A stretch of DNA of 64,000 nt from an uncultured Bacteroidota bacterium (GCA_903844645.1 CAIMUP010000027.1:6547-70546); one strand, 5' to 3'; positions 4,301 to 45,025 are shown, counted from the first letter of the stretch. Numbers and translations are program-made. Notes: generated from the letters alone by a model not told the origin.

Positions 4301-7300
4301 TAAGTTGTTATAGTTAGAATAAATATTATTGTTACAATAAAGTGTTATAAGTGCAGTGTTGTGGGTAACATCTAAGTTATCTAACATATCATCAGCACAA
4401 TGCAATTCCGCAAGTGATGTATTGTTGCTCACATCTAAGTTGCTAATTTGATTTTGAGAACAATCCAAATATGTAAGGGCTATGTTGTGAGAAATATCAA
4501 AACTATTCAAGTAATTGTTGAAACATATTAATCCGGTAAGTGAGGTGAATGCTTCAATGCCAGTTAAACTAGAAATGAAAAGATGAGAAACATCCATAGT
4601 ACCATGAAATGCCTCCGCCTCACAAAATTGAATCTCTCCATCTCCATTAGTATTAATTGCAGTGTCAGCAAGCAAAGCTGTTTTGAACGCAGCATTGGGG
4701 ATGTTCACAATATCGGAGCAATTACAATTCAAACTAAAATGAGCATTAGCATCTACGTTATCAATCCAATAATTAGTTGAATAATCAACATCATCAACCT
4801 GTACACAGAAAAGGTTAGGATTATTAACGGCATTAAAAAACTCTAAATTGGTATTGTTGCCATTCGCAAGATTCAAACTAGTTAGAGTATTAAAGCTACA
4901 ATCAAAATTATTAAGAAGTGGATTGTGACTGACATCTAACATTGTTAATGAATTATTATAAGTTACTAATGCCTGAAGAGCCGCATTATTACTAACATCT
5001 AAGCTGCTTAACATATTATCATAACAATAAATATAAGTAAGAGCTGTGTTTTGGCTAAAATCTATATTAGTAAGTGAATTGCTGGAACACTCTAAATAAG
5101 TTAGTGCCGTGCAGTTCATCAGGTTTAAACTGTTTAATGAATTATTGGAACAATAGACTGTGTTGAGGGCAATGTTATGGCTGAAATCTAAACTTCCTAT
5201 AGGATTGCTGTAACAATATAAAGTAGCAAGTCCAGTAAAGGCTTCTATTCCAGTAAGGTCTGTAATACCTAAACTTGGTACATAAATATAATCTGCGAAA
5301 GCAGTTGCTTCACATACCTGTATTTCATTATCACCATTAGTGTTGATGGCTGTATTTGCAAGTAAATAGGCTTTAAAGTTAGCATCTGGAATGTTTACTA
5401 TGGGTGCACAAGCAGCACAATTTAAACTAAAGGAAGCAGTGGCATCAATACTTCCATTTCCAACTGTCCAATTAGCAGATGAATAAAAAATATCATCTAC
5501 CGTGATACACGAAAGATTTGGATTAAGGGTTGCATCGAAAAGTGTGATGTTTGTGTTGTTGCCATTGGCTACATTTAAACTATTCAGATTGTTATTGGCA
5601 GTGCTGAAAAGTATAAGTGCGGTGTTGTTAGTAACATCCAAAGTTGTCATTGAATTACCATAACATCTTAAATATTGAAGAGCGGTGTTGTGGCTAACAT
5701 CTAAAGTGGTTAGTATGTTTCTTCCACAATTCAAATCAGTTAAGGCAGTGTTGTGGCTCAAGTCCAAAGACAAAATGAAGTTATCGTAGCAATCCAACAT
5801 CACAATATTTGGAAAAGCTTCGATACCTGTAAGATCAAATATTCCACGGCTGTCAACTTGAATGTCTCCTGCAAAAGCATTGGCTTCGCAAACTTGTATT
5901 TCTCCATCTCCATTCGTATTGATGTCTGTTCGTCCAACTAAGTAGGCTTTAAAAATAGCATCGGGAATATTGACTACGACAATGCAATTGCAATTCAAAC
6001 TAAAAGTTGCTGATGCATCAATATTAAAATTAGAAACCGTCCAATTGGCATTTGCCCAAATAGTATCATCAACTGATATGCAAGATAGAGCAGCATTATT
6101 AATGGCACTAAAAGTAGTCATGTTGGTGTTGTTTCCATTAGCCACAGTCAGGTTAGTAAGTGCATTGTTTGTACATTGCAAATTGGTGAGCGAAGTATTA
6201 TGACTCATGTCTAAATTTGTGATGGAATTGTAGTTGCAATTCAGCGTGGTCAGAGCTGGATTGTTGCTGACATCTATGCTTGTTAGCATGTTATTATAAC
6301 AATTAATAGTAGTCAGAGCAGGATTGTGGCTGACATCTAAACTACTGAAATTATTATGGTCGCAGTACAAATAAACAAGCGCATGGTTATAAGATAAATC
6401 AACAGTGCTAATAGTATTCCCTCCGCACAACAAACCAGTGATATTTGGAAAATTCTGAATACCGGCTAACTGTGCAATACTCAAACCATTCACATCAATT
6501 GTTCCGGTAAAAGCATCGGCTTCACAGACTTGTATTTCGTTGTCGCCATTGGTATTAATAGCAGGATTCGCAAGCAAGGCTGCTTTGAAATTGGCATCAG
6601 GAATGTTTAAGATAGCAGTACAGGCACAATTGAGACTAAAACTTGCCCCTGAATCTATGCTGCCATTACCCACTGTCCAAGTAGTTGTTGCATAAGCTAC
6701 ATCATCCACTTTGATACAGGTAAGATCAGGATTATTACTTGCATCAAAAGCAGAGAAATCTGTATTGTGACCATTGGCAATGTTTAAGGTATTTAATACT
6801 GGGTTACCACTGCAATAAAAATTAGAAAGGGTAGTGTTTACACTAACATCCAAATGGAATATTGAATTATGAGTACAATCGAAGGTTATAAGCGCACTGT
6901 TATGGCTTATATCAATATCGGTAAGGTTGTTATAATCGCAATACAATTTACTAAGTCCCGCATTGTTGCTCACATCTAAAACTCCTAATGAGTTATCGCT
7001 ACAGCCCAAAATATTAAGGGCTGTATTATGACTCACATCTAAAAAAAACAAAGGGTTCGAGTAACAATATAGATAGCCAAGAGCCGAATTGTGACTCACA
7101 TCTAAACCAACAAGACTATTGCCATTGCATTGTAAACCTACGAGATTTGAATTCTGGCTTACATCTAAATGTACAATACTATTATAACTGCAATCCAATG
7201 TTTGCAAACTGGTATTTTGGGTAACATCCAGGCTATTGAAATTATTATGATTACAAACCAATACCGTAAGAGCCGTGTTATGACTAACATCCAAAGTATT

Positions 7301-8473: not shown

Positions 8474-8716
8474 GTTATTTATTATTAAAATTGTTTAAAA
8501 GATTCCATATTTATTTGGATTTGGCAAACCTACTAAAACATTCGACACTTCCGCTCGATGCAAAATAGGGTGTCCCCCGATCATCCATCAGCACCTTGTA
8601 ATTTCATTCATTTTTTTTAATTTTAATTGGATTAATATATATTAATTTTACTGTATTCTACTTGAAATCGCAGTGTTTGTAACTCCCTCCATCCCAGAAA
8701 GAGTTATCGCTGGCTT

Positions 8717-8864
8717 GGAAATAGTTATGGCTGCCGTGGAAATAGTTATGGCTGGCGTGGAAATAGTTGTGGCTGCCGTGGAAATAGTTATGGCTGGCGT
8801 GGAAATAGTTATAGCTGGCGTGGAAATAGTTATGGCTGGCGTGGAAATAGTTATCGCCAGCCCA
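8717..8864. repeat. Tandem array of 21-bp units (gaaatagttatggctggcgtg), about 7 copies, in a divergent promoter region
   Basis: Direct reading. It lies between the divergent starts of the 2377-aa gene (8473) and the SBBP gene (9053). The terminal unit carries an inverted variant (gctggc/gccagc). Confidence 0.9.
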
Positions 8865-9009: not shown

Positions 9010-9030
9010 CATTTCCTATTTTCGCGGCAT
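9010..9030 (+). promoter_or_regulatory. Candidate Bacteroidota sigma-A -7 element 'TATTTTCG' inside a motif (ttttcgcggc[a/t]ttaataa) that recurs upstream of paaZ
   Basis: 'tattttcgcggcattaataa' sits about 30 bp upstream of the ATG at 9053. The near-identical 'tattttcgcggcttaataa' sits about 30 bp upstream of the ATG at 24112. It resembles the Bacteroidetes TAnnTTTG -7 consensus. Confidence 0.3.
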
Positions 9031-9052
9031 TAATAACATAATAAAAAGTAGT

Positions 9053-10744: not shown

Positions 10745-10825
10745 TTTGGCAAAGGAGGCATCTAATATTCCCTCCCAACCACTCCTATTATATAGGCACC
10801 GTTTTGGGGAGGAATGTGAAATAAG
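10745..10825. repeat. Inverted-repeat arm A (~55-bp core ttcctccccaaaacggtgcctatataataggagtggttgggaggg, reverse-complemented here); partner at 23985-24070
   Basis: The reverse complement of 10770-10825 aligns at about 80% with 24000-24060. Confidence 0.75.
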
Positions 10826-10837
10826 TGATTTATAGCG

Positions 10838-11060
10838 TAACCGACTTCTGTTTCGACCTAAACCATGTGCTTTACTACGAAACAGAAGTCTGCTTCGGTC
10901 TAAAGCATGTGGTTTACTGCGAAACAGAAGTCGGCTTCGGTCTAAACCATGTGGTTTACTGCGAAACAGAAGTCGGCTTCGGTCTAAACAACATGGTTTA
11001 CTACGAAACAGAAGTCGGCTTCGGTCTAAACAACGTTGTTTAGACCGAAACAGAACTTCC
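10838..11060. repeat. Tandem array of 42-bp units (gtttactgcgaaacagaagtcggcttcggtctaaaccatgtg), about 5 copies, bounded by inverted partial copies
   Basis: Direct reading. The first partial unit 'gtaaccgacttctgtttcgacctaaacc' and the last 'gtttagaccgaaacagaac' are inverted relative to the internal units. There are no spacers, so it is not a CRISPR array. Confidence 0.9.
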
Positions 11061-11240
11061 TGAACATGCAAAGCACTCGATTTTGATGGAAATTCTTGCC
11101 GATTTTCGCAAAAGTGGCGTTATTTGGAATTTCGGCAAGTTTTCGGATGATTTGAAATAGATGGATTTTCCCCTAAATTCTTGCCGATTTTGAGGAAATC
11201 GTAGGTTTTGATGAAAACGGGAGGAAATCATCCAAAAAAA
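11041..11240. repeat. Inverted-repeat arm B (~190 bp; internal duplication of '...atcggcaagaattt...'); partner at 23440-23620
   Basis: The reverse complement of 11060-11238 aligns at about 85% with 23443-23615. Example: 'atcgtaggttttgatgaaaacgggaggaaatcatcc' against 'ggatgatttcctcccgttttcatcaaaacctacgat'. Confidence 0.85.
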
Positions 11241-11351
11241 TTATATGGGATAAAACCTCCATCGCGTAGCGACTCCAGCATCGCATCCTGAATTAATCAA
11301 AAACCGCTTGCCCCACTTTTTAATACTTTTGCATCCCTAAGAATAACAATT

Positions 11352-12053
11352 ATGCACCTCGTTTTCGCCCCCGATATTGCCGCCAAAGACTATGTCTTGA
11401 ACAAGGAAGAATCTATGCACATCATCAAGGTTTTGCGCCAACGGATGGATGATAAAATTATGCTGACAGATGGGAAAGGGAACTTTTATACGGCATTAAT
11501 TATGGATGATAACTCGAAGGGATGTGGCGTAAAAATCATCGAAACAACCCGAGAAAAGGAACGGGGATTTGCGCTTCATATCGCCATTGCTCCTACCAAA
11601 AATATGGATCGAATGGAATGGTTCGTTGAGAAGGCAGTGGAGATAGGGATTGATGAAATAACACCCATTATATGCACCCACTCCGAACGGAAAGTAGTGC
11701 GAATGGATAGACTCGAGAAGGTGATGGTTGCTGCGATTAAGCAATCTGTCAAGGCTACGCTGCCGGTACTTAATCCTCTGATTCCGTTTAAAGATTTTAT
11801 TAAAATACCGACTACGGCAGAGCGGTTTATTGCCAATTGCGAGGAGGATGCGGCGACGCATTTAGGGATAAAATATAGTAAAGGTGCGAAGGCGATTGTC
11901 TTGATAGGACCGGAAGGCGATTTCGCTCCCGAAGAGCTTGTGAATGCCGCGAAATCGGGCTATCAATCCATCAGCCTTGGGGCATCACGATTGCGCACTG
12001 AAACTGCGGGTGTAGTGGCATGCCATACCATTAATCTGATGAATGATATTTAG
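11352..12053 (+). CDS. rsmE: 16S rRNA (uracil1498-N3)-methyltransferase RsmE
   Basis: The length (233 aa), the N-terminal 'FAPDI...EESMHIIKVLR' and the C-terminal 'GPEGDF...ELV...G...ISLG.SRLRTETA' are characteristic of the RsmE/SPOUT family. Confidence 0.8.
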   Translation: MHLVFAPDIAAKDYVLNKEESMHIIKVLRQRMDDKIMLTDGKGNFYTALIMDDNSKGCGVKIIETTREKERGFALHIAIAPTKNMDRMEWFVEKAVEIGIDEITPIICTHSERKVVRMDRLEKVMVAAIKQSVKATLPVLNPLIPFKDFIKIPTTAERFIANCEEDAATHLGIKYSKGAKAIVLIGPEGDFAPEELVNAAKSGYQSISLGASRLRTETAGVVACHTINLMNDI

Positions 12054-12733
12054 TTGATGGTAGGATCGTTTTCGCGATACATATAAATTACTCTTGGTTC
12101 CTCGGGATTGTTTGGCGGTAAAAGATTATCATCCTCATCCTCGTCTTCAAAGGGATCTATCGGAGGTGGCGGTCCTTGGTTGCGGAAGATTAAGGCACAG
12201 AAAAAACCCATCAATAAACCGAATAAATGGGACTCCCATGATACTCTCAAATCCATTGGCATGATGCCCCAGACAATGCTTCCATAAAGAAAAGTTACTA
12301 GAAAGGTGATGGCTAATAACGGGATATTCCTTCTGATAATTCCACTTAAAAACAGGAAACCGAACAGCCCGTAAACAACCCCACTTGCACCGATGTGAAC
12401 ATTCTGCCGGGCAAATATCCATACTAATATTCCTCCGCCAAGATAGATGATAAAGAACGTTTTATATGCAAGGCTTCGGTAGAAATAGACCATCAGCAAA
12501 CAACATATAAACAGTGGAATGGTATTAGAGATTAGGTGAGAAAAGTCAGCATGAATCAGCGGGGCAGTAAGGATGCCGATCATGCCGGAAGCTTTGCGAG
12601 GGACTAAGCCGAGGGAGCCTAAACTACCGGTAAAGAATTGATAGATGTGGATTAGCCACAGTATTAAAATGAAGATTCCCGGCAGGTAGATGCTAAGGAA
12701 TATGCGGTTCTTTTCTTCTTTGTCTAATGCCAT
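12050..12733 (-). CDS. Rhomboid-family intramembrane serine protease
   Basis: Multi-pass membrane protein with the catalytic 'GASGVVYGLFG' (GxSG) motif and a downstream His-containing TM helix (ESHLFGLLMGFF). Confidence 0.8.
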   Translation of the reverse strand: MALDKEEKNRIFLSIYLPGIFILILWLIHIYQFFTGSLGSLGLVPRKASGMIGILTAPLIHADFSHLISNTIPLFICCLLMVYFYRSLAYKTFFIIYLGGGILVWIFARQNVHIGASGVVYGLFGFLFLSGIIRRNIPLLAITFLVTFLYGSIVWGIMPMDLRVSWESHLFGLLMGFFCALIFRNQGPPPPIDPFEDEDEDDNLLPPNNPEEPRVIYMYRENDPTIN

Positions 12734-12841
12734 ACTTTTCGGGATGCAAAGAAATAGAAAATTCGGACAATCAGATGCTGGAGATAATGTTCATATTTAT
12801 TATTCTATTTTTCTACTTTTGCCGCCACAAATAAATAACGA

Positions 12842-14071
12842 ATGAAGAAGATAATAGCATTACTAAGCTGCCTGATGACAGGAGTATTACTAACGATGGC
12901 GCAATCGCCGGAAGCATTGATGACACAGGCTTCTACGGAATACAAGAACGGAAATTATGTAGGCGCAATATCGCTTTGCAGTAAGATTATCCAGCAGAAG
13001 CCTGATGCTTACCTTGCCTTCTGTACGCGTGGGCTTTCGTATTATCAATTGGCAAAGTATGATGCCTCGATTTCTGATTATAATAAGGCTATTGAATACA
13101 ATCCGAACTTTGCGGAGGTGATCTATTATCGTGGTTTAGTCTATGATAAGATGAATAAATACGAGTCCTCTGTTTCTGATTATACCCGTGCCATCCAAAT
13201 CAATCCGAACTACATAGATGCCTATTACAAGCGGGGTTTGGCGTATTACCAGATAGGCAAGTACGATTATTCTGTGCTCGATTTCAGTAAGACAATTACT
13301 ATTGGAGGCGATAAGGCAGATGCTTACTTTAATCGTGGTCTTTGTTATTATAAGATGGATAAGTTCGAGGCTGCGATTGCTGATTTCGGGAAGACGATTA
13401 CCACGAATCCCAATTACAAAGAAGCCTTATATAATCGAGGTTTGTGTAATTATCGCTTAGATAATTTTGAGCCTGCTATTCAGGACTTTACGAAGGCAAT
13501 AACTTTAGATTTGAATTATACAGATGCTTATTTCAACCGCGGTTTGACGTATAATAAGTTGGATAAATACAACAACGCCATCCTCGATTTGTCGAAGACT
13601 ATTCAATTAAAAGTTGATTATGCCGATGCGTATTGCAACCTTGGTTACTCCTGCTTCAAGTCATCTAAATTCGATGATGCTCTTACTAATCTTAATAAAG
13701 CAATCAGCCTTAAATCTGACTTCTCGGATGCGTATTTCTTCCGTGGTTTGGTGAGGAATAAACAGAAGCAGTATGAATCTGCGGTCATTGATTTCTCTAA
13801 GTCATTGGATTTGAAGAAGGACAAGGATGCCTTTCCGCAGGGGTATTTCAACAGGGGTGTTTCCTTTATGTCTATCAACAAAAATGATGAAGCTGTTGAA
13901 GATTTCGACCGTGCAATCAAGTTAAATCCAGAGTACGCGGAGGCTTATTCCAAGCGGGGTTTGGTGAAGATTGCGATGAGTAAGAAAGCTGAAAGCTGTG
14001 CTGATTTAAAGAAGGCTGCCGACATGGGTTTGGAGGAAGCCATCAACGCTTATGTTAAGAATTGCGATTAA
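12842..14071 (+). CDS. Tetratricopeptide-repeat (TPR) secreted/lipoprotein
   Basis: Signal peptide, then about 10 consecutive 34-residue TPR units ('AY.NRGL.YY...KY..AI.DF.KAI..NPNY'). Confidence 0.8.
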   Translation: MKKIIALLSCLMTGVLLTMAQSPEALMTQASTEYKNGNYVGAISLCSKIIQQKPDAYLAFCTRGLSYYQLAKYDASISDYNKAIEYNPNFAEVIYYRGLVYDKMNKYESSVSDYTRAIQINPNYIDAYYKRGLAYYQIGKYDYSVLDFSKTITIGGDKADAYFNRGLCYYKMDKFEAAIADFGKTITTNPNYKEALYNRGLCNYRLDNFEPAIQDFTKAITLDLNYTDAYFNRGLTYNKLDKYNNAILDLSKTIQLKVDYADAYCNLGYSCFKSSKFDDALTNLNKAISLKSDFSDAYFFRGLVRNKQKQYESAVIDFSKSLDLKKDKDAFPQGYFNRGVSFMSINKNDEAVEDFDRAIKLNPEYAEAYSKRGLVKIAMSKKAESCADLKKAADMGLEEAINAYVKNCD

Positions 14072-14134
14072 TAATAAGTTGCGAATTACCCCAATTAAAT
14101 GCAATCAAACAGTGTAATCAGTAGCCATTAAAAG

Positions 14135-14788
14135 ATGATCAAAGCGCAGCAGATATTCAAAGCATACAACGACCTGAAGGTGCTTCAAGGCATTGATGTG
14201 GTGATCGAAACGGGAGAGATCGTTTCTATCGTTGGTCCTTCGGGTGCTGGCAAAAGTACGTTACTGCACATCCTCGGAACGCTGGATAAGGCAGACAAAG
14301 GCGTGGTCGAAATCAATGATATTAAAATAGGTGAATTGAATAGTAAACAACTCGCTGCGTTCCGCAATAAAAACATTGGTTTCATCTTTCAGTTTCATCA
14401 TTTGCTCCCTGAATTCACGGCGTTGGAGAATGTGTGCATCCCTGCTTTCATCGCTCATGCCAGCAAAAAAGATGCTGAAAAACGTGCTGCCGAACTTCTC
14501 GATTTCCTCGGTTTGAAAGATAGGTTAAATCATAAACCAAAAGAATTATCTGGTGGTGAACAGCAACGCGTCGCTGCTGCCCGCGCCTTAATTAATAGCC
14601 CTACCGTGATTATGGCGGATGAACCTTCGGGCAATCTGGACTCTCATTCCGCGACCGAACTCCACAATTTATTCTTCCAATTGCGGAAGGAATTCAACCA
14701 GACCTTTGTCATCGTAACGCACAATGAGGAGTTGGCGAATATGGCTGATCGAAAGCTGGTGATGAAGGACGGTAAATTGGTTGATTAA
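14135..14788 (+). CDS. ABC transporter ATP-binding protein, LolD/MacB-like
   Basis: Walker A 'GPSGAGKST', ABC signature '[15 protein letters not shown]', Walker B 'IMADEP'. The length (217 aa) is typical of LolD/FtsE-type ATPases. Confidence 0.85.
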
Positions 14789-14870
14789 TCCTCTTCTTTT
14801 ATCCTTCAGAATCCCCTCTTATTTTACCCTCGACAAAACATCTGGGGTTGGTTCAGGAATTAGATAATAT

Positions 14871-15138
14871 ATTGTAATACTTCCCTGTGACATTGTAATA
14901 CTTCCCTGTGACATTGTAATACTTCCCTGTGACATTGTAATACTTCCCTGTAACATTGTAATACTTCCCTGTAACATTGTAATACTTCCCTGTCACATTG
15001 TAGTACTTCCCTGTCACATTGTAGTACTTCCCTGTGACATTGTAATACTTCCCTGTGACATTGTAGTACTTCCCTGTGACATTGTAATACTTCCCTGTGA
15101 CATTGTAGTACTTCCCTGTGACATTGTAGTACTTCCCC
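14871..15138. repeat. Tandem array of 21-bp units (cattgtaatacttccctgtga), about 13 copies
   Basis: Direct reading. Intergenic, between the ABC ATPase stop and the next TPR gene. Confidence 0.9.
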
Positions 15139-15277
15139 ATCACTTTAGTAGTTTTCTCTGTTTTTAAACCCTATTTTACGTTGTAAACACCATTATATAA
15201 GAAGTAGAAATCGGAATTCGGAGCCACGAAACCCCCATTTTCAGTGTTTTTATCCGGAATTTTCCTTTCTTTGCCAG

Positions 15278-16348
15278 ATGAAAACATACCTCCATTTCCT
15301 GGCGAAGATTATTTGCATCTTTCTTCTGATGCTAATTACCATCAATAGTATTGGGCAAAACAAAAGTAATATTGATACCTTCCGAGTCATGTTAAAGAAA
15401 TACGATGAATTAAAAAAAGAACCGGCTAATAAAGTGAATTTCTCATTAGATAGTATGAAGGTTGAAATTCTAAATGCAATGAGTTATGAATACGCGAATA
15501 TTAATACTGATTCTGCCCTTTTGTATGCTAATAAAGCATTAAAATTCTCTGAAAAGATTCATTCTAAAAAGGGCATGGCGGATGCCTATTATTATACGGC
15601 TGTTGTATTTACTGAATTAGGTAAGTATGACAAGGCATTGAAATATCATAAAAAGTCTTTAAAGGTTCATTTAAGAATAAATGATATGAAAGGTTGCTCT
15701 ATGTCCTATACCAGTATGGGTATTATTTATGACCTTCAAGGCTCTTATTCCAAGGCTATAAAATATTATACAATGGCGTTGAAGTTCTCACTATTGTTGA
15801 AGGATGACAAAGGAATCGCAGCAGACTATGGAAACATAGGGGTGGTGTATATGAATGAAAAGAAATATGATAGTGCGCTATCTAATTTCTTTACATCGCT
15901 GAAGATAGAAGAAGAAATAAATAATGTATCAGGTATTGCTCAAACTCTTAATAATGTTGGCATGATTTATCATAAACAAGGAAAGTATCCTGAAGCATTA
16001 GAGAGCCTTAATTTATCCCTGCAAAAGAAAGAAGAGATAGGAGATAAACGGGGTATTTCTTATTCTTATAATAACATTGGCGATGTGTATTGTGCACAAG
16101 GCAATTGCCAGAAAGCATTGGATAATTGCTTGCTTTCAATCAAGATGAAAGAAGACCTTGGCGACAAGTATGGCATTGCCTATTCTTACAACAGTATAGG
16201 GCTTATTTATAAGAGTTTTAATAAGTACCAAGAGGCGATGGAGTATGCGCAAAAAGGACTTGCATTAGCCCATGCAATCGGTGCGAAAGACTTGGAACAA
16301 GAGCTACTTAAACACATCGAGGAGTTAAAAACTTTGATGAAGAAGTAG
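15278..16348 (+). CDS. TPR-repeat protein with N-terminal signal/anchor
   Basis: Hydrophobic N-terminus, then repeated 'GMADAYYY.A.V...GKYDKALKY..K.L' TPR-like units. Confidence 0.7.
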   Translation: MKTYLHFLAKIICIFLLMLITINSIGQNKSNIDTFRVMLKKYDELKKEPANKVNFSLDSMKVEILNAMSYEYANINTDSALLYANKALKFSEKIHSKKGMADAYYYTAVVFTELGKYDKALKYHKKSLKVHLRINDMKGCSMSYTSMGIIYDLQGSYSKAIKYYTMALKFSLLLKDDKGIAADYGNIGVVYMNEKKYDSALSNFFTSLKIEEEINNVSGIAQTLNNVGMIYHKQGKYPEALESLNLSLQKKEEIGDKRGISYSYNNIGDVYCAQGNCQKALDNCLLSIKMKEDLGDKYGIAYSYNSIGLIYKSFNKYQEAMEYAQKGLALAHAIGAKDLEQELLKHIEELKTLMKK

Positions 16349-16363
16349 ATTAATAAAGGCTTC

Positions 16364-17410
16364 TTAATTGTTTATATAAATAGCAAATTCATCCCTCGCG
16401 ATGAACTGTCCAATAGGCTTATTCGTGATAGAGGACAAGCCGAAATCGTGCATCACTTCTTGGAATTGATTAACCGTATCGGGATTCACAGAAACCAGCA
16501 AGCCACCAGAGGTTTGCGGGTCGCAAAGCGTGATAAAAGACATGCCTTCAATGCCACTTACTTTCTTTTCATAACTGTTCCAATTGCGATAGACATTATC
16601 GGGGAAACAAAACTGGTTGGTGTAGTATTCAATACCGTTAATCAAGGGAATATCCTGGTAATTCAATGCTGCCGAAAGGTCACTCCCATCAGCCATCTCG
16701 ATAAGATGACCGAGTAATCCGAATCCCGTAACATCTGTCATGGCAGACACTCCCTGCATCTTGCTTAATTCGACACCGACCTTGTTCAATTGGCACATTA
16801 AATCGAGAGCTGTTTTATAATCTTCATCCCGAACGATGCCACGCTTGAGTGCAGCAGTAATAATGCCGATTCCCAGGGGCTTGGTAAGGTACAATTGATT
16901 ACCGATATGGGCGGTGTTGTTCTTCTTTAAGTGAGCGGTTTCGATGATGCCATTCACCGCCAAGCCGAATATGGGTTCCGTGGTGGAAATACTGTGCCCG
17001 CCTGCCAATGGAATGCCTGCTTCTTCGCAGATAGCGCGACTGCCTTGCAATACTTGGTGCGCCAGTTCGGGGGTTAGTTTATCCATGTTCCAACCAAGGA
17101 TGGCGATGGCTAAAATCGGCTTGCCACCCATCGCATAAACGTCGTTGATGGCATTAACAGCGGCTATTCTCCCAAAATCAAAAGCATCATCCACGATAGG
17201 CGTGAAAAAGTCGGTCGTCGCGATGAGTGCCGAGCCATTACCCATGTCGAAAACGGCAGCATCATCGCGAGAATGATTCCCTACCAACAATTCTTTGAAG
17301 GCGTTTCTGTTCTCGCCGTCCTGCAAAATGATATCTAACTGCGAAGCCGGTATTTTGCAGCCACAGCCCGAGCCTTTGCTGTATTGCGTTAATCTGATTT
17401 GTTCGTTCAT
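16364..17410 (-). CDS. selD: Selenide, water dikinase (selenophosphate synthetase) SelD, Cys-type
   Basis: N-terminal 'LTQYSKGSGCGCKIPASQLDIIL' (SelD GxGCK motif with Cys, not Sec). AIR-synthase-related fold motifs 'DAAV...TTDFFTP..DD' and 'AMTDVTGFGLLGH'. Confidence 0.85.
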   Translation of the reverse strand: MNEQIRLTQYSKGSGCGCKIPASQLDIILQDGENRNAFKELLVGNHSRDDAAVFDMGNGSALIATTDFFTPIVDDAFDFGRIAAVNAINDVYAMGGKPILAIAILGWNMDKLTPELAHQVLQGSRAICEEAGIPLAGGHSISTTEPIFGLAVNGIIETAHLKKNNTAHIGNQLYLTKPLGIGIITAALKRGIVRDEDYKTALDLMCQLNKVGVELSKMQGVSAMTDVTGFGLLGHLIEMADGSDLSAALNYQDIPLINGIEYYTNQFCFPDNVYRNWNSYEKKVSGIEGMSFITLCDPQTSGGLLVSVNPDTVNQFQEVMHDFGLSSITNKPIGQFIARDEFAIYINN

Positions 17411-17460
17411 GTTGCAAAACTAAGAAAGAAAAGCGTTATCGCGTTTCGAGGATGCAAACA

Positions 17461-18033
17461 TCACTGAATGGTAGCTGCGATATGCGTGTCAGTGTAGGCG
17501 GCATACTTGCTCAATTCTGTTGCTATGTGGGCATTCCAGAGCTGTTGGTTGGCGGTATTGATATGATGATTCGTTTCTTTGTCGTACCGGTTCTCTTCCT
17601 TCTCCCACGCCTTGGAATTACTCTTATAAAGGTCGTTTAATTTCGCTTTTACGTTCCTTTTATTAAACGATGCATCGCGCAAAGCCTTCCTTAATTTACG
17701 GGCATACAACTCTGCAAGATCGAAATGCCCTTGTTCGTGTTTCAATCCTGATTCATCGCGACCGATGGGCTTCACCCACGACTGTTTTCTATAAAATATC
17801 GCCTTTACTTCGATGGTAATCGCGGCTCCTTGGTAGTGATAGTTGTACGACATGCCCGAACTCGTAACAGCCCCGTAGTTACTGGCGTTGTTAGGCGTTC
17901 CCTGGAAGTCATCCCACGATAATTGATGGGCAGTCCAAGGTATTTCATCGCCTTCTTTTGCTCTGTTATTCCCGAAAGAAAACAGTACAAAGGCGATACA
18001 CAGCAGGGCGGTTATAGAACTTGTTTTTTTCAT
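17461..18033 (-). CDS. DUF922-family protein (predicted Zn-metallopeptidase-like, HExxH)
   Basis: Signal peptide MKKTSSITALLCIAFVLF, then the 'KHEQGHFD' motif characteristic of DUF922. The ORF track extends the reading frame to 18309 through the repeat array; the true start is most likely the ATG at 18033. Confidence 0.65.
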   Translation of the reverse strand: MKKTSSITALLCIAFVLFSFGNNRAKEGDEIPWTAHQLSWDDFQGTPNNASNYGAVTSSGMSYNYHYQGAAITIEVKAIFYRKQSWVKPIGRDESGLKHEQGHFDLAELYARKLRKALRDASFNKRNVKAKLNDLYKSNSKAWEKEENRYDKETNHHINTANQQLWNAHIATELSKYAAYTDTHIAATIQ

Positions 18034-18099
18034 CAAATTAAGACTATACAAAAACGATTCCAAAGTTTTTTTATTGGATAAAAGCGACCTCGCGTTCGC

Positions 18100-18243
18100 C
18101 AATCGCGTACATGCCGTTACAATTCGCGTACATTGACTCGGAATTAGCGTACATGCCGTTAGAATTAGCGTACATTGACTCGGAATTAGCGTACATTTCA
18201 TGACATAAACACGTGTTTTTGTCATGAAATGTACGCTAATTTT
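18100..18243. repeat. Tandem 21/42-bp array (gcgtacatgccgttacaattc / gcgtacattgactcggaatta) ending in a ~58-bp near-perfect palindrome
   Basis: The palindrome 'aattagcgtacatttcatgacataaacacg|tgtttttgtcatgaaatgtacgctaatt' spans 18185-18242. It lies between the DUF922 start and the nnr stop. Confidence 0.9.
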
Positions 18244-18256
18244 AGCCTCAATTATG

Positions 18257-19792
18257 CTATCGGAGGAGGGAAAATCCGTTACTGATGCCTTCAATAATAT
18301 CTCTGGCAATCATGAATTCTTCTCCGAGTTTTTCTTTAGCAATATCGCCTGCAAGCCCATGCAAAAAGACCCCGATCATACAAGTCGCGGCAGCGGTATA
18401 ACCCTGTGCCATCAAGCCTGTCAGCATTCCGGTCAGCACATCGCCACTACCCGCCGTCGCCATCCCGGGATTGCCCGTAGAATTGAAAAATAATTGCCCA
18501 TCAGGGAAAGAAATACAAGTATGCGCCCCCTTCAGAATGACATAACATTGGTTTTTGATAGAGAACGCTCGCTGCATTTCCATCCGATTGAAATTATCGG
18601 ACGATTTCCCCACCAATCGCTCGAATTCCTTCGGATGTGGCGTAAAAACACATCCCTTCGGGAGGAAAGCGAGCCACGTTTTGTTCTCCGCAAGGATATT
18701 TATCGCATCGGCATCGAGGATTAAGGGGAGCGTGGTTTGCTGAATGAGCACTTTGAGGAAGTTTTGGGTAGATGAATGCATGCCGATGCCCGGTCCGATG
18801 CCGATTGCGGTATAATTATCGGGCTTAATGGGAGTAGAAATCATGTTTAATTCAGCATCGCACACCACCATCGCCTCCGGAATACTTGTTTGCAGAATGT
18901 CGTATCCGCATTTCGGAATGTTAGTAGTCAATAATCCCGCACCGACTCGCAAAGCCGCCATAGAAGCGAGAACTGCGGCACCTATCTTACCATAGCTGCC
19001 GGCAATAAGTAGCGCATGACCATAATTTCCCTTATGAGAGAAAGGGCTTCGCCGATGAATCATCGGTTTGATGCTGTCTTCGGTAAGGTAATGGAACATT
19101 GTGGATGTATTTTGGAGAAATTCCTCCGAAAGATGGATGTTTATCACCTCCCAATTCCCGATATATTCAGCATTTTCAGGCATCATAAAAGCAATCCTCG
19201 GCACTTGGAACGTGAGCGTACTATTTGCTTTAATAATCGGACTGTTTCTGGTAATGGAAGTACCATCGCCATGCAAGCCGGAGGGCATATCCACCGCTAT
19301 CACACGGGCATTGCCATTGTTAATTCTATTAATGACCTCGGCAGCCAGCCCTTCGACAGGTTTGTTCAGCCCCGAGCCAAAAATAGCATCAATAATAAGG
19401 TCGTCAGGATGAATTTCGGGGATGTCATTCTCGGAATTAATATCAACGATTCTATTTTTCTTCACCTCCACCATCTTAGAATGAAAAAAAAGGAAATCGT
19501 CGGAGCAATGCTCACTGTATCTCACAATATAAGTTTCGACTTTGAAGTTCCGCCTGCTCAATTCTCGAGCTATCACCAAGCCATCGCCACCATTATTCCC
19601 CGTTCCGCAAAAGATTTTGATAGTATGGTCATCAGCAATACTACTTCTGAAATGCCTATCCTCGATTATCTTAATAATTTCTTCAGTACACGCCTTGGCA
19701 GCCCGCTCCATGAGGCGAAAAGATTCGATAGGTTCATGGATTATCGTGTAAGCATCCCACTCTTTGATCTGTTGTTGAGAAAATAGCTTCAT
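18257..19792 (-). CDS. nnr: Bifunctional NAD(P)H-hydrate repair enzyme Nnr (NAD(P)HX epimerase / ADP-dependent dehydratase)
   Basis: N-terminal YjeF-N domain ('QQIKEWDAYTI...CGTGNNGGDGLV'). C-terminal YjeF-C/carbohydrate-kinase domain ('LILDADAIN...GSGDVLTG'). Confidence 0.85.
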   Translation of the reverse strand: MKLFSQQQIKEWDAYTIIHEPIESFRLMERAAKACTEEIIKIIEDRHFRSSIADDHTIKIFCGTGNNGGDGLVIARELSRRNFKVETYIVRYSEHCSDDFLFFHSKMVEVKKNRIVDINSENDIPEIHPDDLIIDAIFGSGLNKPVEGLAAEVINRINNGNARVIAVDMPSGLHGDGTSITRNSPIIKANSTLTFQVPRIAFMMPENAEYIGNWEVINIHLSEEFLQNTSTMFHYLTEDSIKPMIHRRSPFSHKGNYGHALLIAGSYGKIGAAVLASMAALRVGAGLLTTNIPKCGYDILQTSIPEAMVVCDAELNMISTPIKPDNYTAIGIGPGIGMHSSTQNFLKVLIQQTTLPLILDADAINILAENKTWLAFLPKGCVFTPHPKEFERLVGKSSDNFNRMEMQRAFSIKNQCYVILKGAHTCISFPDGQLFFNSTGNPGMATAGSGDVLTGMLTGLMAQGYTAAATCMIGVFLHGLAGDIAKEKLGEEFMIARDIIEGISNGFSLLR

Positions 19793-19801
19793 TGTATGAA
19801 T

Positions 19802-20788
19802 TTAATTGAGAATCCCGACATCAATTCCCTGCATAGAATAATGATATTGGAGATGTCTGCCATCGCCATGCACAGTTAATATCTTCTTCGGACTGACTTT
19901 CTCGACAAGTACCTGCAAATCCTGCCAATCGGCATGGTCGCTGATGTGTAAACGTACCGATGCGCTCTTGTAAAACCAATCCCAGCCCGTCGCAAATGTA
20001 GAATGGAACTTGGAATTATCCTTATAGCGATGATAAATATACGGCGGGACAATGTAGATACAATTATCAGAGAGTTTAAAGAGGTTTCGGCTGTATGGAA
20101 GCCAATTTCCAAGGTCGTAATTATGGGCTTTGTAAAGATGATGGAAAGGAATGATAGATGTATGGATCATTACAATCTTGTCGGGACAGTTCTTTAGTGC
20201 AAGATGCGTGATTCGCTGCGCTTTGCCAATAGCATAAGTACCAATAAGGATATTTCTGGCATCAAGATTATTCAATTTCTGTATTTCGAGGTCAGCATCG
20301 GGATGGATATGTCGAGGATTGGCAAAAGTAGTTTCAGTCATCAGCACATCGGCACTAACAATTTCGATGGGTTCACAAGATGCATCAGGCTGGAGTTTAA
20401 AATCACCGGTGTATAGGTATTTAATACCATCGTACTCCATCAAAACCATTGCACTTCCGAGCATGTGCCCTGCCGGATATAGCGTAATACGAACATCGTT
20501 AATATAAAATGGAGAACCGTATTCCTTTACATGAAACACCTCTGTAGATTTCTTATTAGGATTTCGGATATTCATCAAATCTTTGGTAGGAGCCGTACAA
20601 TAGATGTTCTTATTATTCTTAACAGCATGATCCGAGTGAGCATGGGAAACAACAGCATGGGCTACGGGCTTCTTCGGATCAAGATAAAACTCGCCGGCAG
20701 CACAATAAATCCCAGAAGGCGTTACCGTCAGAAGGTTATATTGCAAAGGATTAGCCGTATCGAAAATAGAAAGTTGAGAAAGATCCAA
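19802..20788 (-). CDS. MBL-fold metallo-hydrolase (beta-CASP-like, possible nucleic-acid processing exonuclease)
   Basis: 'VVSHAHSDHA' HxHxDH metallo-beta-lactamase motif plus downstream His/Asp ligands. About 330 aa. Confidence 0.6.
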   Translation of the reverse strand: MDLSQLSIFDTANPLQYNLLTVTPSGIYCAAGEFYLDPKKPVAHAVVSHAHSDHAVKNNKNIYCTAPTKDLMNIRNPNKKSTEVFHVKEYGSPFYINDVRITLYPAGHMLGSAMVLMEYDGIKYLYTGDFKLQPDASCEPIEIVSADVLMTETTFANPRHIHPDADLEIQKLNNLDARNILIGTYAIGKAQRITHLALKNCPDKIVMIHTSIIPFHHLYKAHNYDLGNWLPYSRNLFKLSDNCIYIVPPYIYHRYKDNSKFHSTFATGWDWFYKSASVRLHISDHADWQDLQVLVEKVSPKKILTVHGDGRHLQYHYSMQGIDVGILN

Positions 20789-20793
20789 AGCTA

Positions 20794-21396
20794 TTATCTA
20801 TAATCTTTGTACTGCTTTAAAAAGCTTTCATGCAATTCCAAAACCTGCGGTATGACGAGGTATTGATTGTCGTTGGTCACTACAAAGTCGGAACGCTTTA
20901 TCTTTTCAGTGCTCGACATTTGGTTCTTCATGATTGCCTCCACTCGTTCTTTGGTTACCTCATCGCGTTCCATGACTCTTTTAATCCGTAAATCGTTCGG
21001 TGCTACCACAGTTACAATCCGATCACAGTCTTCATCTGCTCCACTTTCAAAAAGTATGGCTGCTTCTTTTACCAAGTATTTGGAGTTCATATTCTCTTTC
21101 TTCCACTTCTGAAAATGTTTCTTTACGAAGGGATGAACGAGGTTGTTCAGTTTCTCTAATTGCTCTTTATTTTTAAAAACTACTTCTGCCATTTTCTTAC
21201 GATTCAAGCCTTCTTTGGCACTATACATATTGGCTCCGAATTGTTTCTTTATTTCTTTGATTAAAGCGGTATCGGTGTTCATTAAATTCTTGGCTTCGGT
21301 ATCGGCATTGTAAACAGCAATGCCTAAGCGTTCAAAAATTTTACAAACGACGGACTTGCCGCTGCCAATACCCCCTGTAACTCCTATTATCAACAT
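20794..21396 (-). CDS. coaE: Dephospho-CoA kinase
   Basis: 'IIGVTGGIGSGKS' P-loop directly at the N-terminus, 200 aa. Sits in the yajC-YbbR-coaE arrangement conserved in Bacteroidota. Confidence 0.85.
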   Translation of the reverse strand: MLIIGVTGGIGSGKSVVCKIFERLGIAVYNADTEAKNLMNTDTALIKEIKKQFGANMYSAKEGLNRKKMAEVVFKNKEQLEKLNNLVHPFVKKHFQKWKKENMNSKYLVKEAAILFESGADEDCDRIVTVVAPNDLRIKRVMERDEVTKERVEAIMKNQMSSTEKIKRSDFVVTNDNQYLVIPQVLELHESFLKQYKDYR

Positions 21397-21407
21397 ATCT
21401 GTATCCT

Positions 21408-22409
21408 TTATTTTATCATGATATAATCCACATAAGGCGGCGTTATCAGAATAGTTTTGACATAATCAGGAAAGGCGGATAAGGCGACCTTCACCTTCGT
21501 ATTGTTTTCAGGTGTAAAGTCTTTGAAGTCTGCTTCTGCCTTAAACAAATTTGCAGTTGCCCTGTTGTAGTCCTCAATAGATACCATGCAGGTTATCGTT
21601 GCCTTGGCGGGTAGTATCTTGATGTTATACTTTGGTTTCAGATTCGTAATCTTGATAGGTATCTCTATGGTCTTTTCGGTGAATTTCTCGATGGGTATTG
21701 TTACGAATACTTTGTCTGTCGAATAAAACGTAATCCCCGTTGTCTTCTTCTCGATGTTCATCATCTCCGAGATAGTCCTGTCTGCTTCCTTGAACTCCTC
21801 ATGCACGGTATTGATATAGGTCAACGAATCCAATTCCTCGCGAGAGCCTGAAACCGTGATGCTATCAGGAGAAATCGTTGCTTTTCCTTTTCGTTCGTAT
21901 TGCTTGCGACAACGAATTTCCACGTTTAATTTGATAGGGACTTTCTTAGACAAGAGATCGCTAAAGTAGAGCTTGATAGTATCCGGAGTGATGGAATTAA
22001 TGTCTATCTCATCGCCCATATATTTCTTTATTTCCGGCATAAAATTCGACGTCGCGATGTCGAATTCCTTTTCTTGTTTAGGAGATACCTTGAGATTACT
22101 TTTCGACAAATCCACAGTGATAGGAAGCTTATTGTTTTTGAAATAATACTTCACCAAGTCATATCCCTTTGCATTGATACCGATGCTAAATTGTTTCGGC
22201 AAGTTATTAGTTAACGTCTTATCGGTAGGCAAGTTCATATAGTCTATATTCAACCGAATCTTATAATCAAAATTGTTCTCCAGCACCAGCAAAATCCAGA
22301 AACCGCTGGCGATAAACACACAGGTTCCGAAGGCATATAACTTGGTTCGTAGCTTCGGCTCATTGGTAATGGTGTAGCCTCGGAGGAAGGAGAATAAGCT
22401 TGATTTCAA
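21408..22409 (-). CDS. YbbR-like domain protein
   Basis: N-terminal TM segment followed by repeated beta-rich YbbR-like modules. Lies between yajC and coaE, as is typical in Bacteroidota. Confidence 0.55.
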   Translation of the reverse strand: MKSSLFSFLRGYTITNEPKLRTKLYAFGTCVFIASGFWILLVLENNFDYKIRLNIDYMNLPTDKTLTNNLPKQFSIGINAKGYDLVKYYFKNNKLPITVDLSKSNLKVSPKQEKEFDIATSNFMPEIKKYMGDEIDINSITPDTIKLYFSDLLSKKVPIKLNVEIRCRKQYERKGKATISPDSITVSGSREELDSLTYINTVHEEFKEADRTISEMMNIEKKTTGITFYSTDKVFVTIPIEKFTEKTIEIPIKITNLKPKYNIKILPAKATITCMVSIEDYNRATANLFKAEADFKDFTPENNTKVKVALSAFPDYVKTILITPPYVDYIMIK

Positions 22410-22439
22410 GTCCGTATTGCATGGAGTGATTCCACTCTT

Positions 22440-22793
22440 TTATTTTCCCTTGCCGGCAGGAGCTGCAGCGATTTTCGGGTTCAGCGATTTCGTCGCATCC
22501 ACAGCTATAGAAGTTTTCTCTATCTTCAATCTGTTTTGTCCTTCAACCTCGATGATATAGGTGCCATTTTCATCGTCAATATCAAGAATCTTTCCGTGAA
22601 TACCGCCTATGGTAATCACTTTATCGCCCTTCTTGATGGTTTCCTTAAATTCTTTTTCCGTCTTTGCCTTCTTCATTTGAGGACGTATCATAAAGAAATA
22701 GAATACGATACCCATCATCGCAATCATGATTAAGGTGGACATCCCGCTGCCACCGCCTGGGGTGCCTTGTAATAAAATTGTACTTAGTTGCAT
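22440..22793 (-). CDS. yajC: Preprotein translocase subunit YajC
   Basis: 'ILLQ..GGGS.MSTLIMIAMMGIVFYFFMIRPQ.KK' matches the YajC consensus. Confidence 0.85.
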   Translation of the reverse strand: MQLSTILLQGTPGGGSGMSTLIMIAMMGIVFYFFMIRPQMKKAKTEKEFKETIKKGDKVITIGGIHGKILDIDDENGTYIIEVEGQNRLKIEKTSIAVDATKSLNPKIAAAPAGKGK

Positions 22794-22850
22794 ATTAATA
22801 TATATTATTTATTGTTTATTCCTTGTTAATTCTTCCCTGATTTTCTCCTA

Positions 22851-23351
22851 TTAATTCGTCCCCTCTGCCTTTACATCTCCGGTTATGGTAAGTGTATGCG
22901 AATTCGGGATGGTGTTCGCAATAACGGTAACGGTTTTATGGTTCGAGCCTGACTTGCCGGTACTGTTGAACGTAACTTCGATGATGCCGTCTTCGTTAGG
23001 GGCGACAGGCTTTGAGGAATACGTAGGGATGGTACAGCCGCAGCTTGCATGTGCATTGCTGATGACCAAATCCGTCGTCCCGACGTTTTTAAATTTGAAG
23101 GTATGATGCACCTTCTGTCCCTCTTTTATCCTACCAAAGTCGAAAGATTCTTCGGCAAATTTGAAGATAGGAATATTCTTAACCGAGTCCTTCGATGCCG
23201 CAGTGGCGGGGTTCGAGACCATGTCGGTATCTAATGTTTCGTCTTTCGGTTTCTTGCTATGTTCGCAAGATGCGAGTACTATGAGCAAGGGCATCAGCAG
23301 TATTAAAATAATTTTATTCATCACCATAACCGTTTTCTTATCAAGCCGCAA
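22851..23351 (-). CDS. DUF1573 domain protein (secreted)
   Basis: Signal peptide, then 'FKFKNVGTTDLVISNAHASCGCTIP', the hallmark of DUF1573. The start may be the internal Met (MNKIIL..., 23321). Confidence 0.7.
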   Translation of the reverse strand: MRLDKKTVMVMNKIILILLMPLLIVLASCEHSKKPKDETLDTDMVSNPATAASKDSVKNIPIFKFAEESFDFGRIKEGQKVHHTFKFKNVGTTDLVISNAHASCGCTIPTYSSKPVAPNEDGIIEVTFNSTGKSGSNHKTVTVIANTIPNSHTLTITGDVKAEGTN

Positions 23352-23439
23352 ATGTACGATTATTATGGGTAATGATACTATCGAAAATTTTATTCTTTAC
23401 TAAATCTTTCATTCCCCGCGGCTTTTATCCCGAATATTT

Positions 23440-23620
23440 TTTTAGGATGATTTCCTCCCGTTTTCATCAAAACCTACGATTTCCTTAAAATCGGCAAGAA
23501 TTTCGGGGGAAATTCATCTCCTTTAAATCATCCAAAAACAGGTCAGAATTCCAAATAACGCCACTTTTCCGAAATCCGGCAAGAATTTAGGGTAAAATCG
23601 AAGTGGTTTGCGTTTCATTC
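23440..23620. repeat. Inverted-repeat arm B' (partner of 11041-11240)
   Basis: See arm B. It carries the internal duplication 'aatcggcaagaatttcgggg / atccggcaagaatttaggg'. Confidence 0.85.
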
Positions 23621-23632
23621 TGCTCGCCTTCG

Positions 23633-23828
23633 GTATATATCACATGATATATAGCAATCGGGAGTTCGCCATCGCAATATATCATATGATATATTGCGAT
23701 CCCGAGCATAATAAAAGTGCATATCATATGATATATTGCAATCCCGAGCATAATGAAAGTGCATATCACATGATATATTGCAATCCCGAGCATAATGAAA
23801 GTGCATATCATATGATATATTGCGATCC
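23633..23828. repeat. Tandem array of 42-bp units (atatcatatgatatattgcaatcccgagcataatgaaagtgc), about 4.5 copies; each unit holds the palindrome atatcatatgatatat
   Basis: Direct reading. The first unit is partly inverted (gcaatcgggag against ctcccgat...). Confidence 0.9.
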
Positions 23829-23984
23829 CTAACTCCCGAACGTAGTAAACCATCTGATTTTGCCTTTTGGGGAATTCCGGAAATGTGCATACCATTTCGT
23901 TTAGACCGATGCCGACGAGCAGATTTTTGCATCTCATCTGATTTTTCCCAATCCCGACGAGTGGGTTTTGATAAATTTTCAAGT

Positions 23985-24070
23985 TTATTCCATTCCCCGA
24001 AAAGATACCTATATAATAGGAGTGGTTGGGAGGGAAATCGGGATGGCGGTGGCGCGGAATGGTATCATCC
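23985..24070. repeat. Inverted-repeat arm A' (partner of 10745-10825); overlaps the putative paaZ promoter
   Basis: 'gatacctatataataggagtggttgggaggg' against the reverse complement of the left arm, 'ggtgcctatataataggagtggttgggaggg'. Confidence 0.75.
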
Positions 24071-24111
24071 ATCGTTTTCGTATTTTCGCGGCTTAATAAA
24101 ATTTAATAATT

Positions 24112-27688: not shown

Positions 27689-27850
27689 ATCGTATCTTTG
27701 CCCCCTCAAATAAAAAAGATGAATTCAAGAAATCATAAAATAATCCTAAACCAGTTTCTCTCGGAGCTTAACGCCCTTCGCCTGTCTTTGCCTACTCGCG
27801 AAAGCTCCAAAAGATGGTCGTAAATTATTCTTGTAAAATCGCCTTTTTCA

Positions 27851-28069
27851 TGCATGTAATCTCGCTTTTGTCGCGAGTAAAATTGCTTTTATTGCATGTA
27901 ATATCCTTTTTGTTGGATGTAATTTCATTCCCGCTGCATGAAACGTCATTCCGGTTGCATGAAATGTCATTCCGTCTGCATGTAATCTCCTTTTTGTTGC
28001 ATGTAATTTCATTCCCGTTGCATGAAATTTCATTCCCGTTGAGTGAAATTTCATTTTTCACTCAACGGG
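27851..28069. repeat. Tandem array of 21-bp units (tgcatgtaatttcattcccgt), about 10 copies, ending in a 13-bp-stem hairpin (ccgttgagtgaaa...tttcactcaacgg)
   Basis: Direct reading. The hairpin at 28034-28069 lies about 60 bp upstream of the ATG at 28131. Confidence 0.9.
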
Positions 28070-28130
28070 CAAAACTATATTATGCTATAAATCAGTACAT
28101 TAAATAAACAATAATCAAAAAATATAAATT

Positions 28131-33754: not shown

Positions 33755-33819
33755 GGCAATGTTGCCATTTAATCAAACTATCCTTTATAACAATAACGCT
33801 GTTCAGGCATTGAATAACG

Positions 33820-34138
33820 TAAGTCGGGGACTGACTTACATCATTCAATCCCCGAACAACGAAGTTCGGGGACTGAATGATGTACTTCGGGGACTGAATG
33901 ATGTACTTCGGGGACAGAATGATGTACTTCGGGGACTGAATGATGTAAATCGGGGACAGAATGATGTACTTCGGGGACTGAATGATGTAAATCGGGGACT
34001 GAATGATGTACTTCGGGGACCGAATGATGTACTTCGGGGACTGAATGATGTACTTCGGGGACTGAATGATGTACTTCGGAGACCGAATGATGTACTTCGG
34101 GGACTGAATGATGTACTTCGGGGACCGAATGATGTAAT
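33820..34138. repeat. Tandem array of 21-bp units (ggactgaatgatgtacttcgg), about 13 copies, preceded by two short hairpins (gtaagtc-ggggact-gacttac; ccccgaac-aacgaa-gttcgggg)
   Basis: Direct reading. It fills the gap between the 1589-aa gene stop and the next T9SS gene start. Confidence 0.9.
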
Positions 34139-34252
34139 CCTTACACACAAATGCCCATTCCTTATATACAATAGCGAAGTCCGGGTATATGACAGGGATG
34201 TTATCTTGGAAAATCTTAAATAAATTATAGTAACGAATAAAAATTAAAGACA

Positions 34253-45018: not shown

Positions 45019-45025
45019 ACAAAAA

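Follow-up and report, generated by a model that had tools for sequence, protein, structure and literature searches.

Within a 64,000-nt stretch of DNA from an uncultured freshwater bacterium of the Bacteroidota (GCA_903844645.1, CAIMUP010000027.1:6547-70546; hereafter the window), we analysed two inverted copies of a non-coding module that flank a block of housekeeping genes. Each copy consists of a short arm A, an array of 42-bp units and a longer arm B, and each stands upstream of one of two convergent gene groups (Table 1). On balance, the two copies are probably paralogous minisatellite spacers that form a passive pair, one at the head of each of two convergent operons, and not a working inversion switch. 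The arms were compared by blastn of the window against itself, arrays were detected with Tandem Repeats Finder (TRF), and gene and RNA families were assigned with Pfam and Rfam. The analysis covered about 74 kb of the source genome, namely the window and 10 kb to its right, and the module was present in two copies in this sequence.

In the self-comparison, arm B (11061-11255) matched the reverse complement of the right copy (23617-23423) with 85.2% identity over 196 columns (E ~1e-51), and a second repeat search returned 179 nt of it at 86%. Arm A (10768-10815) matched 24036-23987 with 88% identity over 50 nt, or 91% over 43 nt. The first-pass annotation of this DNA had described paired inverted repeats with embedded 42-bp arrays, 80-85% identical, on both sides of the housekeeping block; the repeats, their geometry and the estimate of identity were all recovered, with positions that agreed within about 20 nt. 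Between the copies, the longest stretches without a mismatch measured 41, 22 and 17 nt for arm B and 29 nt for arm A. The 29-nt stretch, TTCCCTCCCAACCACTCCTATTATATAGG, forms the core of arm A and had no further occurrence in the window. A 24-nt segment of arm B was likewise confined to the two copies; the shuffled expectation was 0 for each. The duplication noticed earlier inside arm B was also present. The motif AAATTCTTGCCGATTTT occurred twice per copy, 85 nt apart, and its four occurrences in the window were all within the arms; arm B was self-similar at 85 nt in both copies (z = 4-5). The last 60 or so aligned columns of arm B, up to 11239, held two mismatches and contained the 41-nt identical run. 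The homology boundaries of the module were fairly sharp, and this pair was the only non-coding dispersed repeat in the window. The same arrangement recurred at 99.9% identity in independent assemblies from several samples and several assemblers, and the inverted configuration is therefore not an assembly artefact.

Pfam confirmed the genes rsmE, rhomboid, selD, nnr, coaE and yajC, which had already been recognized within the block, and added two TPR proteins, an ABC ATPase, DUF922, an MBL-fold protein, YbbR and DUF1573. The plus-strand group comprised rsmE, TPR, ABC and TPR, with the rhomboid gene among them on the minus strand, and the minus-strand group comprised DUF1573, yajC, ybbR, coaE, MBL, nnr, DUF922 and selD. 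The consensus of the -7 element in Bacteroidetes is TAnnTTTG, and a candidate box of this type was located upstream of the first gene of each group. Both copies showed the same order of arm A, array, arm B, about 67 nt of DNA, -7 box and gene; the DNA from arm B to the box was not alignable between the copies, as judged by eye. Since the copies have the same polarity with respect to the downstream operon and the operons converge, the copies are necessarily inverted relative to each other, and this alone accounts for the geometry. What looked like a bracket is thus two convergent transcription units, each headed by one module copy. Related DNA does lie at both borders, as had been suggested, in the form of the non-coding module, and arm A does lie downstream of the SBBP gene. 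However, arm A' does not overlap the paaZ promoter as previously proposed: the likely paaZ -7-like box, TATTTTCG at 24081-24088, lies 45 nt outside arm A'. This box is part of a 25-nt stretch, TATTTTCGCGGCnTTAATAA, that is also present upstream of the SBBP gene (24076-24099 and 9012-9036, 92% identical, 13-40 nt before the paaZ and SBBP start codons). The two genes probably share this stretch as a promoter or leader box, in which the -7-like sequence is TAttTTCG. Scans for sigma-70 promoters and terminators gave nothing above shuffled expectation, and the GC skew across the block tracked gene orientation and was uninformative.

The two embedded arrays had been described as sharing a period but not a sequence. 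The common period of 42 bp was confirmed, whereas complete unrelatedness was not. A single 42-nt register ran through both copies: the distance from arm A to arm B was 6x42 nt in the left copy and 9x42 nt in the right copy, and in a 42-nt layout starting from arm A the arm B rows of both copies aligned exactly. The left and right consensus units were identical at 18 of 42 positions in register (shuffle mean 10.8, P ~0.01). Between the young array and arm A', the right copy contained degenerate rows that were 20-25/42 identical to the left consensus, including a relic of the left unit at 23916-23891 with 88% identity. Arm A itself was identical to the left array consensus at 20 of 42 positions in register and is probably a fossil array unit; by these alignments, the arms in general look like fossil array units. 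Two inverted 21-nt halves make each left unit a quasi-palindrome, which is strongly hairpin-prone as a single strand (DNA fold z = -10.8).

Array lengths differed by -21 and -84 bp between samples, and the right array was two units (84 bp) shorter in contig L006. These copy numbers were taken from short-read assemblies, which cannot resolve the arrays, and the copy numbers in the window are uncertain. Gaps of 100 N were present in L001 (13699-13798) and L004 (863-962) inside the most homogeneous array (window 14871-15137), and contigs L002 and L007 ended inside arrays, at 14905 and 23794. Apparent array variants of +76 and +139 bp were rejected as 100-N scaffold gaps.

Table 1. Positions of the two modules, of the elements next to them and of the tandem arrays. 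Positions refer to the window except where L016 is named.
Feature	Position	Strand	Remarks
Left module (arm A, 42-bp array, arm B)	10768-11255	+	Non-coding, between SBBP/T9SS gene (stop 10705) and rsmE (ATG 11352)
Arm A	10768-10815	+	Core 10768-10796 identical to 24036-24008
Left 42-bp array	10825-11055	+	~5.5 copies (TRF); reaches 11061 in the module layout
Arm B	11061-11255	+	85% identical to 23617-23423; 85-nt tandem duplication, AAATTCTTGCCGATTTT at 11090 and 11175
Candidate -7 box TACTTTTG	11324-11331	+	Fits TAnnTTTG; 68 nt after arm B, 20 nt before rsmE ATG
Enclosed block, two convergent gene groups	11352-23321	both	~12.2 kb between modules
Candidate -7-type box TACATTTG	23349-23356	-	66 nt beyond arm B', 27 nt before DUF1573 ATG (23321)
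Right module, reverse complement of left (arm B', young array, degenerate rows, arm A')	23423-24036	-	
Arm B'	23423-23617	-	AAATTCTTGCCG motifs at 23487-23503 and 23572-23588
Right 42-bp array	23637-23829	-	~4.5 copies; young unit carries palindrome ATATCATATGATAT
Degenerate 42-nt rows	23830-23994	-	z = 7.8 for periodicity; unit type lies between the left and right ones
Arm A'	23987-24036	-	76 nt upstream of paaZ ATG (24112)
161-aa open reading frame	23587-24072	-	Annotated by gene callers across right module; judged spurious
Window arrays, first seven	985-1229, 8697-8854, 10825-11055, 14871-15137, 18105-18197, 23637-23829, 27851-28058		
Window arrays, remaining six	33865-34136, 37517-37722, 37807-38073, 44790-45019, 52332-52540, 59343-59469		
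Four further arrays, 10 kb right of window	L016 12596-12642, 17275-17389, 17422-17535, 20364-20601		

The lineage is isolated, and the best RsmE relatives were 69-62% identical; PaaZ relatives, unlike those of RsmE, reached 92% and 89%. No arm copy was present in 45 kb of sequence from relatives. In L014 (RsmE 67%), the spacer upstream of rsmE had its own 42-bp array of an unrelated unit and no arm homology, and in L022 (DUF1573 69%) the DUF1573-yajC genes followed a 112-bp spacer behind co-directional genes, with neither arm nor array. L018 to L021 showed no arm homology either. As arm homologues are absent from the spacers of relatives, the arms belong to this species-level lineage alone and do not represent regulatory DNA under conservation. 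The rsmE-upstream spacer of L014 also contained a near-perfect palindrome of about 100 nt (4278-4380), about 100 nt from its 42-bp array. Gene order near paaZ and rsmE differed even among close relatives, and both modules were located at synteny breakpoints. Around paaZ, synteny was not kept even at 92% PaaZ identity and the ancestral order could not be reconstructed from it; the paaZ gene-order test for an old inversion is therefore uninformative.

Based on these observations, we propose that the module is an old, lineage-specific, non-coding minisatellite with a 42-bp phase. Its edges, namely arm A and arm B with the 85-nt duplication, would consist of units that had decayed before the module was duplicated, which would explain why the arms can still be aligned at 85-90%. 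The centre would continue to turn over in 21- or 42-bp steps, through slipped-strand mispairing or unequal exchange; as a result, the left copy would still amplify the ancestral unit, whereas the right copy would have amplified a diverged variant and retained relics of the old unit. Both copies have one orientation with respect to a core promoter some 67 nt further on, that of rsmE on the left and that of DUF1573-yajC-ybbR-coaE on the right. Most likely, an old duplication or rearrangement would have left the pair behind as a passive product. One possible but unproven route is an inversion whose breaks were staggered, by which one breakpoint spacer is copied to both ends.

Several observations weigh against this proposal. 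The identity of arm B was uneven, with a 41-nt perfect run (permutation P = 0.017) and with 24 mismatches over the first 131 columns and 5 over the last 65 (Fisher P = 0.055), and arm A had a perfect core of 29 nt. Such tracts could reflect binding-site constraint or gene conversion rather than passive decay, and a function may be suggested by arm B lying about equally far from the box in both copies (66 and 68 nt). The kinship of the two units rests on 43% in-register identity, which one other rotation ties, and the copy-number differences may partly be collapse in short-read assembly. Also, with about 74 kb of the genome covered, the two copies could belong to a larger dispersed family.

A broader account comes from the distribution of the arrays, and it concerns a property of the genome that the first-pass annotation had not mentioned. 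The two 42-bp arrays are two of 13 intergenic arrays detected by TRF in the window, all with periods of 21, 42, 63 or 84 bp. The strongest autocorrelation was at 21, 42 or 84 in 12/12 spacers longer than 300 bp (z = 8-22), and none of the three spacers of 160-200 bp had such periodicity. When the four arrays to the right were included, all periods were 21 bp or multiples of it (42, 63, 84, 126) and the density was about one array per 5 kb. Units were 70-80% identical within arrays, which makes them unique sequence, and the arrays recurred across assemblers that use different k; the period is therefore not a k-mer artefact. Among the 17 consensus units, no k-mer was shared beyond shuffled expectation. 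The arrays showed no codon-position bias, and one was closed by stops in each of the six frames. A tendency to form hairpins was limited to five of the 13 and was rejected as a general property. Two adjacent 21-bp arrays in L016 (17275-17389 and 17422-17535) had reverse-complementary units, GGTACATT and AATGTACC, and this pair of array and inverted array resembles the 21+21 palindromic unit of the left module. Arrays of 21 or 42 bp were also carried by two congeners (L014, L018 and L020), and a relative with a 61%-identical RsmE (L015) had no such arrays in 20 kb. One spacer of the relative with 92% PaaZ identity (L018 17702-18026) contained an 8-bp x 13 and a 24-bp x 7 array, so that relatives do not follow the 21n rule without exception.

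A length of 21 bp corresponds to two helical turns and to seven codons. We tentatively consider that the arms may be fossils of a clade-specific, sequence-independent process that builds and maintains arrays in fixed 21-bp steps and acts in essentially all long spacers of this freshwater lineage, driven either by a molecular ruler that works in replication or repair or by selection that keeps upstream DNA in helical phase. The pair would then be a spacer duplicated by rearrangement and re-seeded with a new unit in register. This account is possible but falls short of probable. A search of the literature found no description of a genome-wide 21n trait of spacer arrays. Should the pattern stem from such a mechanism, dedicated to it, or from a constraint on the phasing of DNA upstream of promoters, bacterial genome architecture would gain a new feature. 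The 21-bp-step arrays are a stronger lead than the pair itself. They also have a practical cost, as they break assemblies and yield spurious gene calls.

A rather unlikely alternative is that the two copies are two insertions of a BOX-type composite repeat, from a family that is dispersed and possibly mobile. The plan of two end modules around a variable number of internal units (A-Bn-C) is that of pneumococcal BOX elements, which likewise occupy spacers and give rise to spurious reading frames (PMC3049150). The fairly sharp boundaries of homology and the absence of the module from equivalent spacers of relatives also speak for this alternative. However, no terminal inverted repeats were found and arm A and arm B had no complementarity of 12 nt or more; in a fold of the whole element, arm A paired with itself only. 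The flanks of both copies had no common direct repeat that could represent a target-site duplication, and the internal units differed between the copies. No transposase or recombinase gene was present in the window, which agrees with the earlier statement that the segment is not a mobile element. The low number of copies, two in about 74 kb of this genome and none in 45 kb of sequence of relatives, also speaks against such a family. Scans for dispersed copies returned six loci, all unrelated, in genome contigs for the pattern AAATTCTTGCCGN{68,78}AAATTCTTGCCG, which was too generic, 0 matches in metagenome contigs for the arm B 24-mer and 0 matches in viral contigs for arm A.

Slightly less likely still is that the arms are functional cis-regulatory DNA through which one regulator controls rsmE and the yajC-coaE-nnr-selD operon. 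The candidate far-upstream sites would be the two AAATTCTTGCCGATTTT motifs of each copy, whose spacing of 85 nt is about eight helical turns, together with the arm A core, and the 42-bp array would serve as a phase-preserving spacer. The shared polarity and the near-equal distances to the -7 box fit this idea, as do the perfect 29-nt and 41-nt tracts within DNA that is otherwise 80-85% identical and the restriction of all four AAATTCTTGCCGATTTT motifs to the arms. Length changes in multiples of 21 bp would also hold the helical phase. On the other hand, the arms are not conserved upstream of the orthologues in the nearest relatives, and the heterogeneity of identity is only marginally significant. 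There is no adjacent regulator gene, the AAATTCTTGCCGATTTT motif is not palindromic, and two copies give no statistical power.

The first-pass annotation had emphasized that the inverted copies are what is needed for recombination to invert the 12-kb block, as a polymorphism or a switch. For RecA-mediated recombination, the minimal processing segment is about 25 nt; with the inverted geometry and with identical tracts of 41 and 29 nt, just above this length, the pair would be a permissive but poor substrate. These tracts lie within DNA that is 15% diverged between the copies. We collected contigs containing RsmE, PaaZ, DUF1573 or SBBP from ERZ18667900, ERZ18667851, ERZ1426548, ERZ1426621, ERZ27313596 and ERR4194711. 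Every contig that crossed a junction, in six samples, kept the order of the window, and one 40-kb scaffold spanned both copies. Contigs that started inside the modules (L003 at 11193 and L006 at 23434) were 99-100% identical to their own copy and 86-94% to the other, and no hybrid junction was seen among the contigs recovered. None of the genes in the window had a Pfam domain of a transposase, an integrase, an invertase or a tyrosine/serine recombinase. Furthermore, a crossover in the arms would keep each operon with its own core promoter, so inversion would switch nothing. The geometry thus permits inversion and there is no sign that it occurs, although assembly data are compatible with a rare minority orientation. 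A role of the pair as an inversion substrate is very improbable.

Public annotations place gene calls of 85-161 aa over the arrays at 23587-24072 (-), 27814-28107 (+), 33732-34253 (-), 14853-15143 (-) and other positions. They had no Pfam match and their lengths followed the copy number; such array-spanning calls are likely spurious and arise because the period is divisible by three. The 161-aa open reading frame (ORF) of the right module was rejected on the same grounds, as it had neither a Pfam match nor a homologue, its length shifted with array copy number and the same frame was closed by a stop at 10819-10821 in the left copy. Arm B had stops in all six frames in both copies. The arms folded as RNA no better than shuffled sequences (z -1.5 to +1.3), and predicted stems were not kept between the copies. 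No module sequence matched Rfam at gathering score, and at E<=1 the palindromic arrays matched only noise from eukaryotic microRNA hairpins. A structured RNA or a 161-aa repeat protein as product of the module is the least credible explanation and is already largely refuted: the ORF is called in several assemblies and the arrays fold strongly as single strands, but the frame is shut in the left copy, the arms carry no fold signal or conserved stems, the Rfam matches are sub-threshold and the fold signal of the arrays stems from their palindromic units.

A few further features were recorded in the searched sequence. The enclosed block holds two more 21n arrays, at 14871-15137 and 18105-18197. 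Beside the latter, between nnr and DUF922 and in the N-terminus of the longest DUF922 ORF, a palindrome of 29+29 nt with 97% complementarity (18184-18241) represents an inverted reuse of the array unit AATTAGCGTACAT. Coding repeats of 204-213 bp were found at 3171-3569 and 55383-57671 in the genes of two very large proteins of the type IX secretion system (T9SS; Por_Secre_tail), which were about 80% similar to each other in DNA sequence. The only Rfam family in the window was the DUF805b RNA motif (RF02914) at 58551-58583 (-), with 42.4 bits against a gathering score of 35.6, and no tRNA was found.

As judged from its sequence, the module lacks defining features of invertons, MITEs (miniature transposable elements with inverted repeats), clustered regularly interspaced short palindromic repeat (CRISPR) arrays and Rfam RNAs. 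The Bacteroidales have invertible promoters and shufflons in which, as here, inverted repeats flank DNA in a Bacteroidota genome. Their repeats, however, are about 10-30 bp long and near-identical, whereas those described here are 200 bp at 85%; the inverted DNA there is a few hundred bp with a promoter and comes with an invertase gene, whereas here it would be 12 kb, with no recombinase and a single orientation. A CRISPR array was rejected, as the units abut head to tail without spacers and no cas gene is present in the window.

The BOX element of pneumococcus, an interspersed composite of the form boxA-(boxB)n-boxC (PMC3049150), is the nearest architectural analogue. Both are non-coding spacer elements in which two conserved end modules enclose a tandem array, with units of about 45 bp in BOX; in both the number of units varies from copy to copy and from strain to strain, spurious ORFs are called, and the elements lie next to genes whose expression they may influence. 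BOX differs in having terminal inverted repeats and end modules that pair, while the ends here do not pair; MITE-like elements would in addition show the target-site duplication that is lacking here. The same boxB unit is found in all BOX copies, whereas the internal units differ between our two copies. BOX is present in more than 100 copies per genome, against two known here in about 74 kb.

In Drosophila, inverted duplications at inversion breakpoints were attributed to staggered breaks (PMC1885836). As would be the case here, one breakpoint region is found there as inverted copies on the two sides of a segment, and the repeats are a result and not a cause of the rearrangement. This precedent is eukaryotic, however, and no outgroup with the ancestral gene order was recovered here, where the inversion is a possible event.

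The arrays as such are best compared with minisatellites or variable number tandem repeats (VNTRs), for example the mycobacterial interspersed repetitive units (MIRUs). Like these, they consist of repeats of tens of bp that are joined head to tail and occupy spacers inside operons or between them, with a homogenised centre, decayed edges and a copy number that is polymorphic between strains, in our case as read from short-read assemblies. In their dynamics the arrays act as ordinary minisatellites or VNTRs. MIRU-type repeats have family-specific units and sizes, whereas here the units are unrelated and the period is always 21n, and the arrays fill every long spacer at about one per 5 kb. The inverted pair alone matters little: it is a duplication of non-coding DNA in few copies, and there is no sign that it is active. 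With about 15% divergence, it is nevertheless a natural experiment on such minisatellites, in which the flanks decay, the register is kept and the central unit is replaced.

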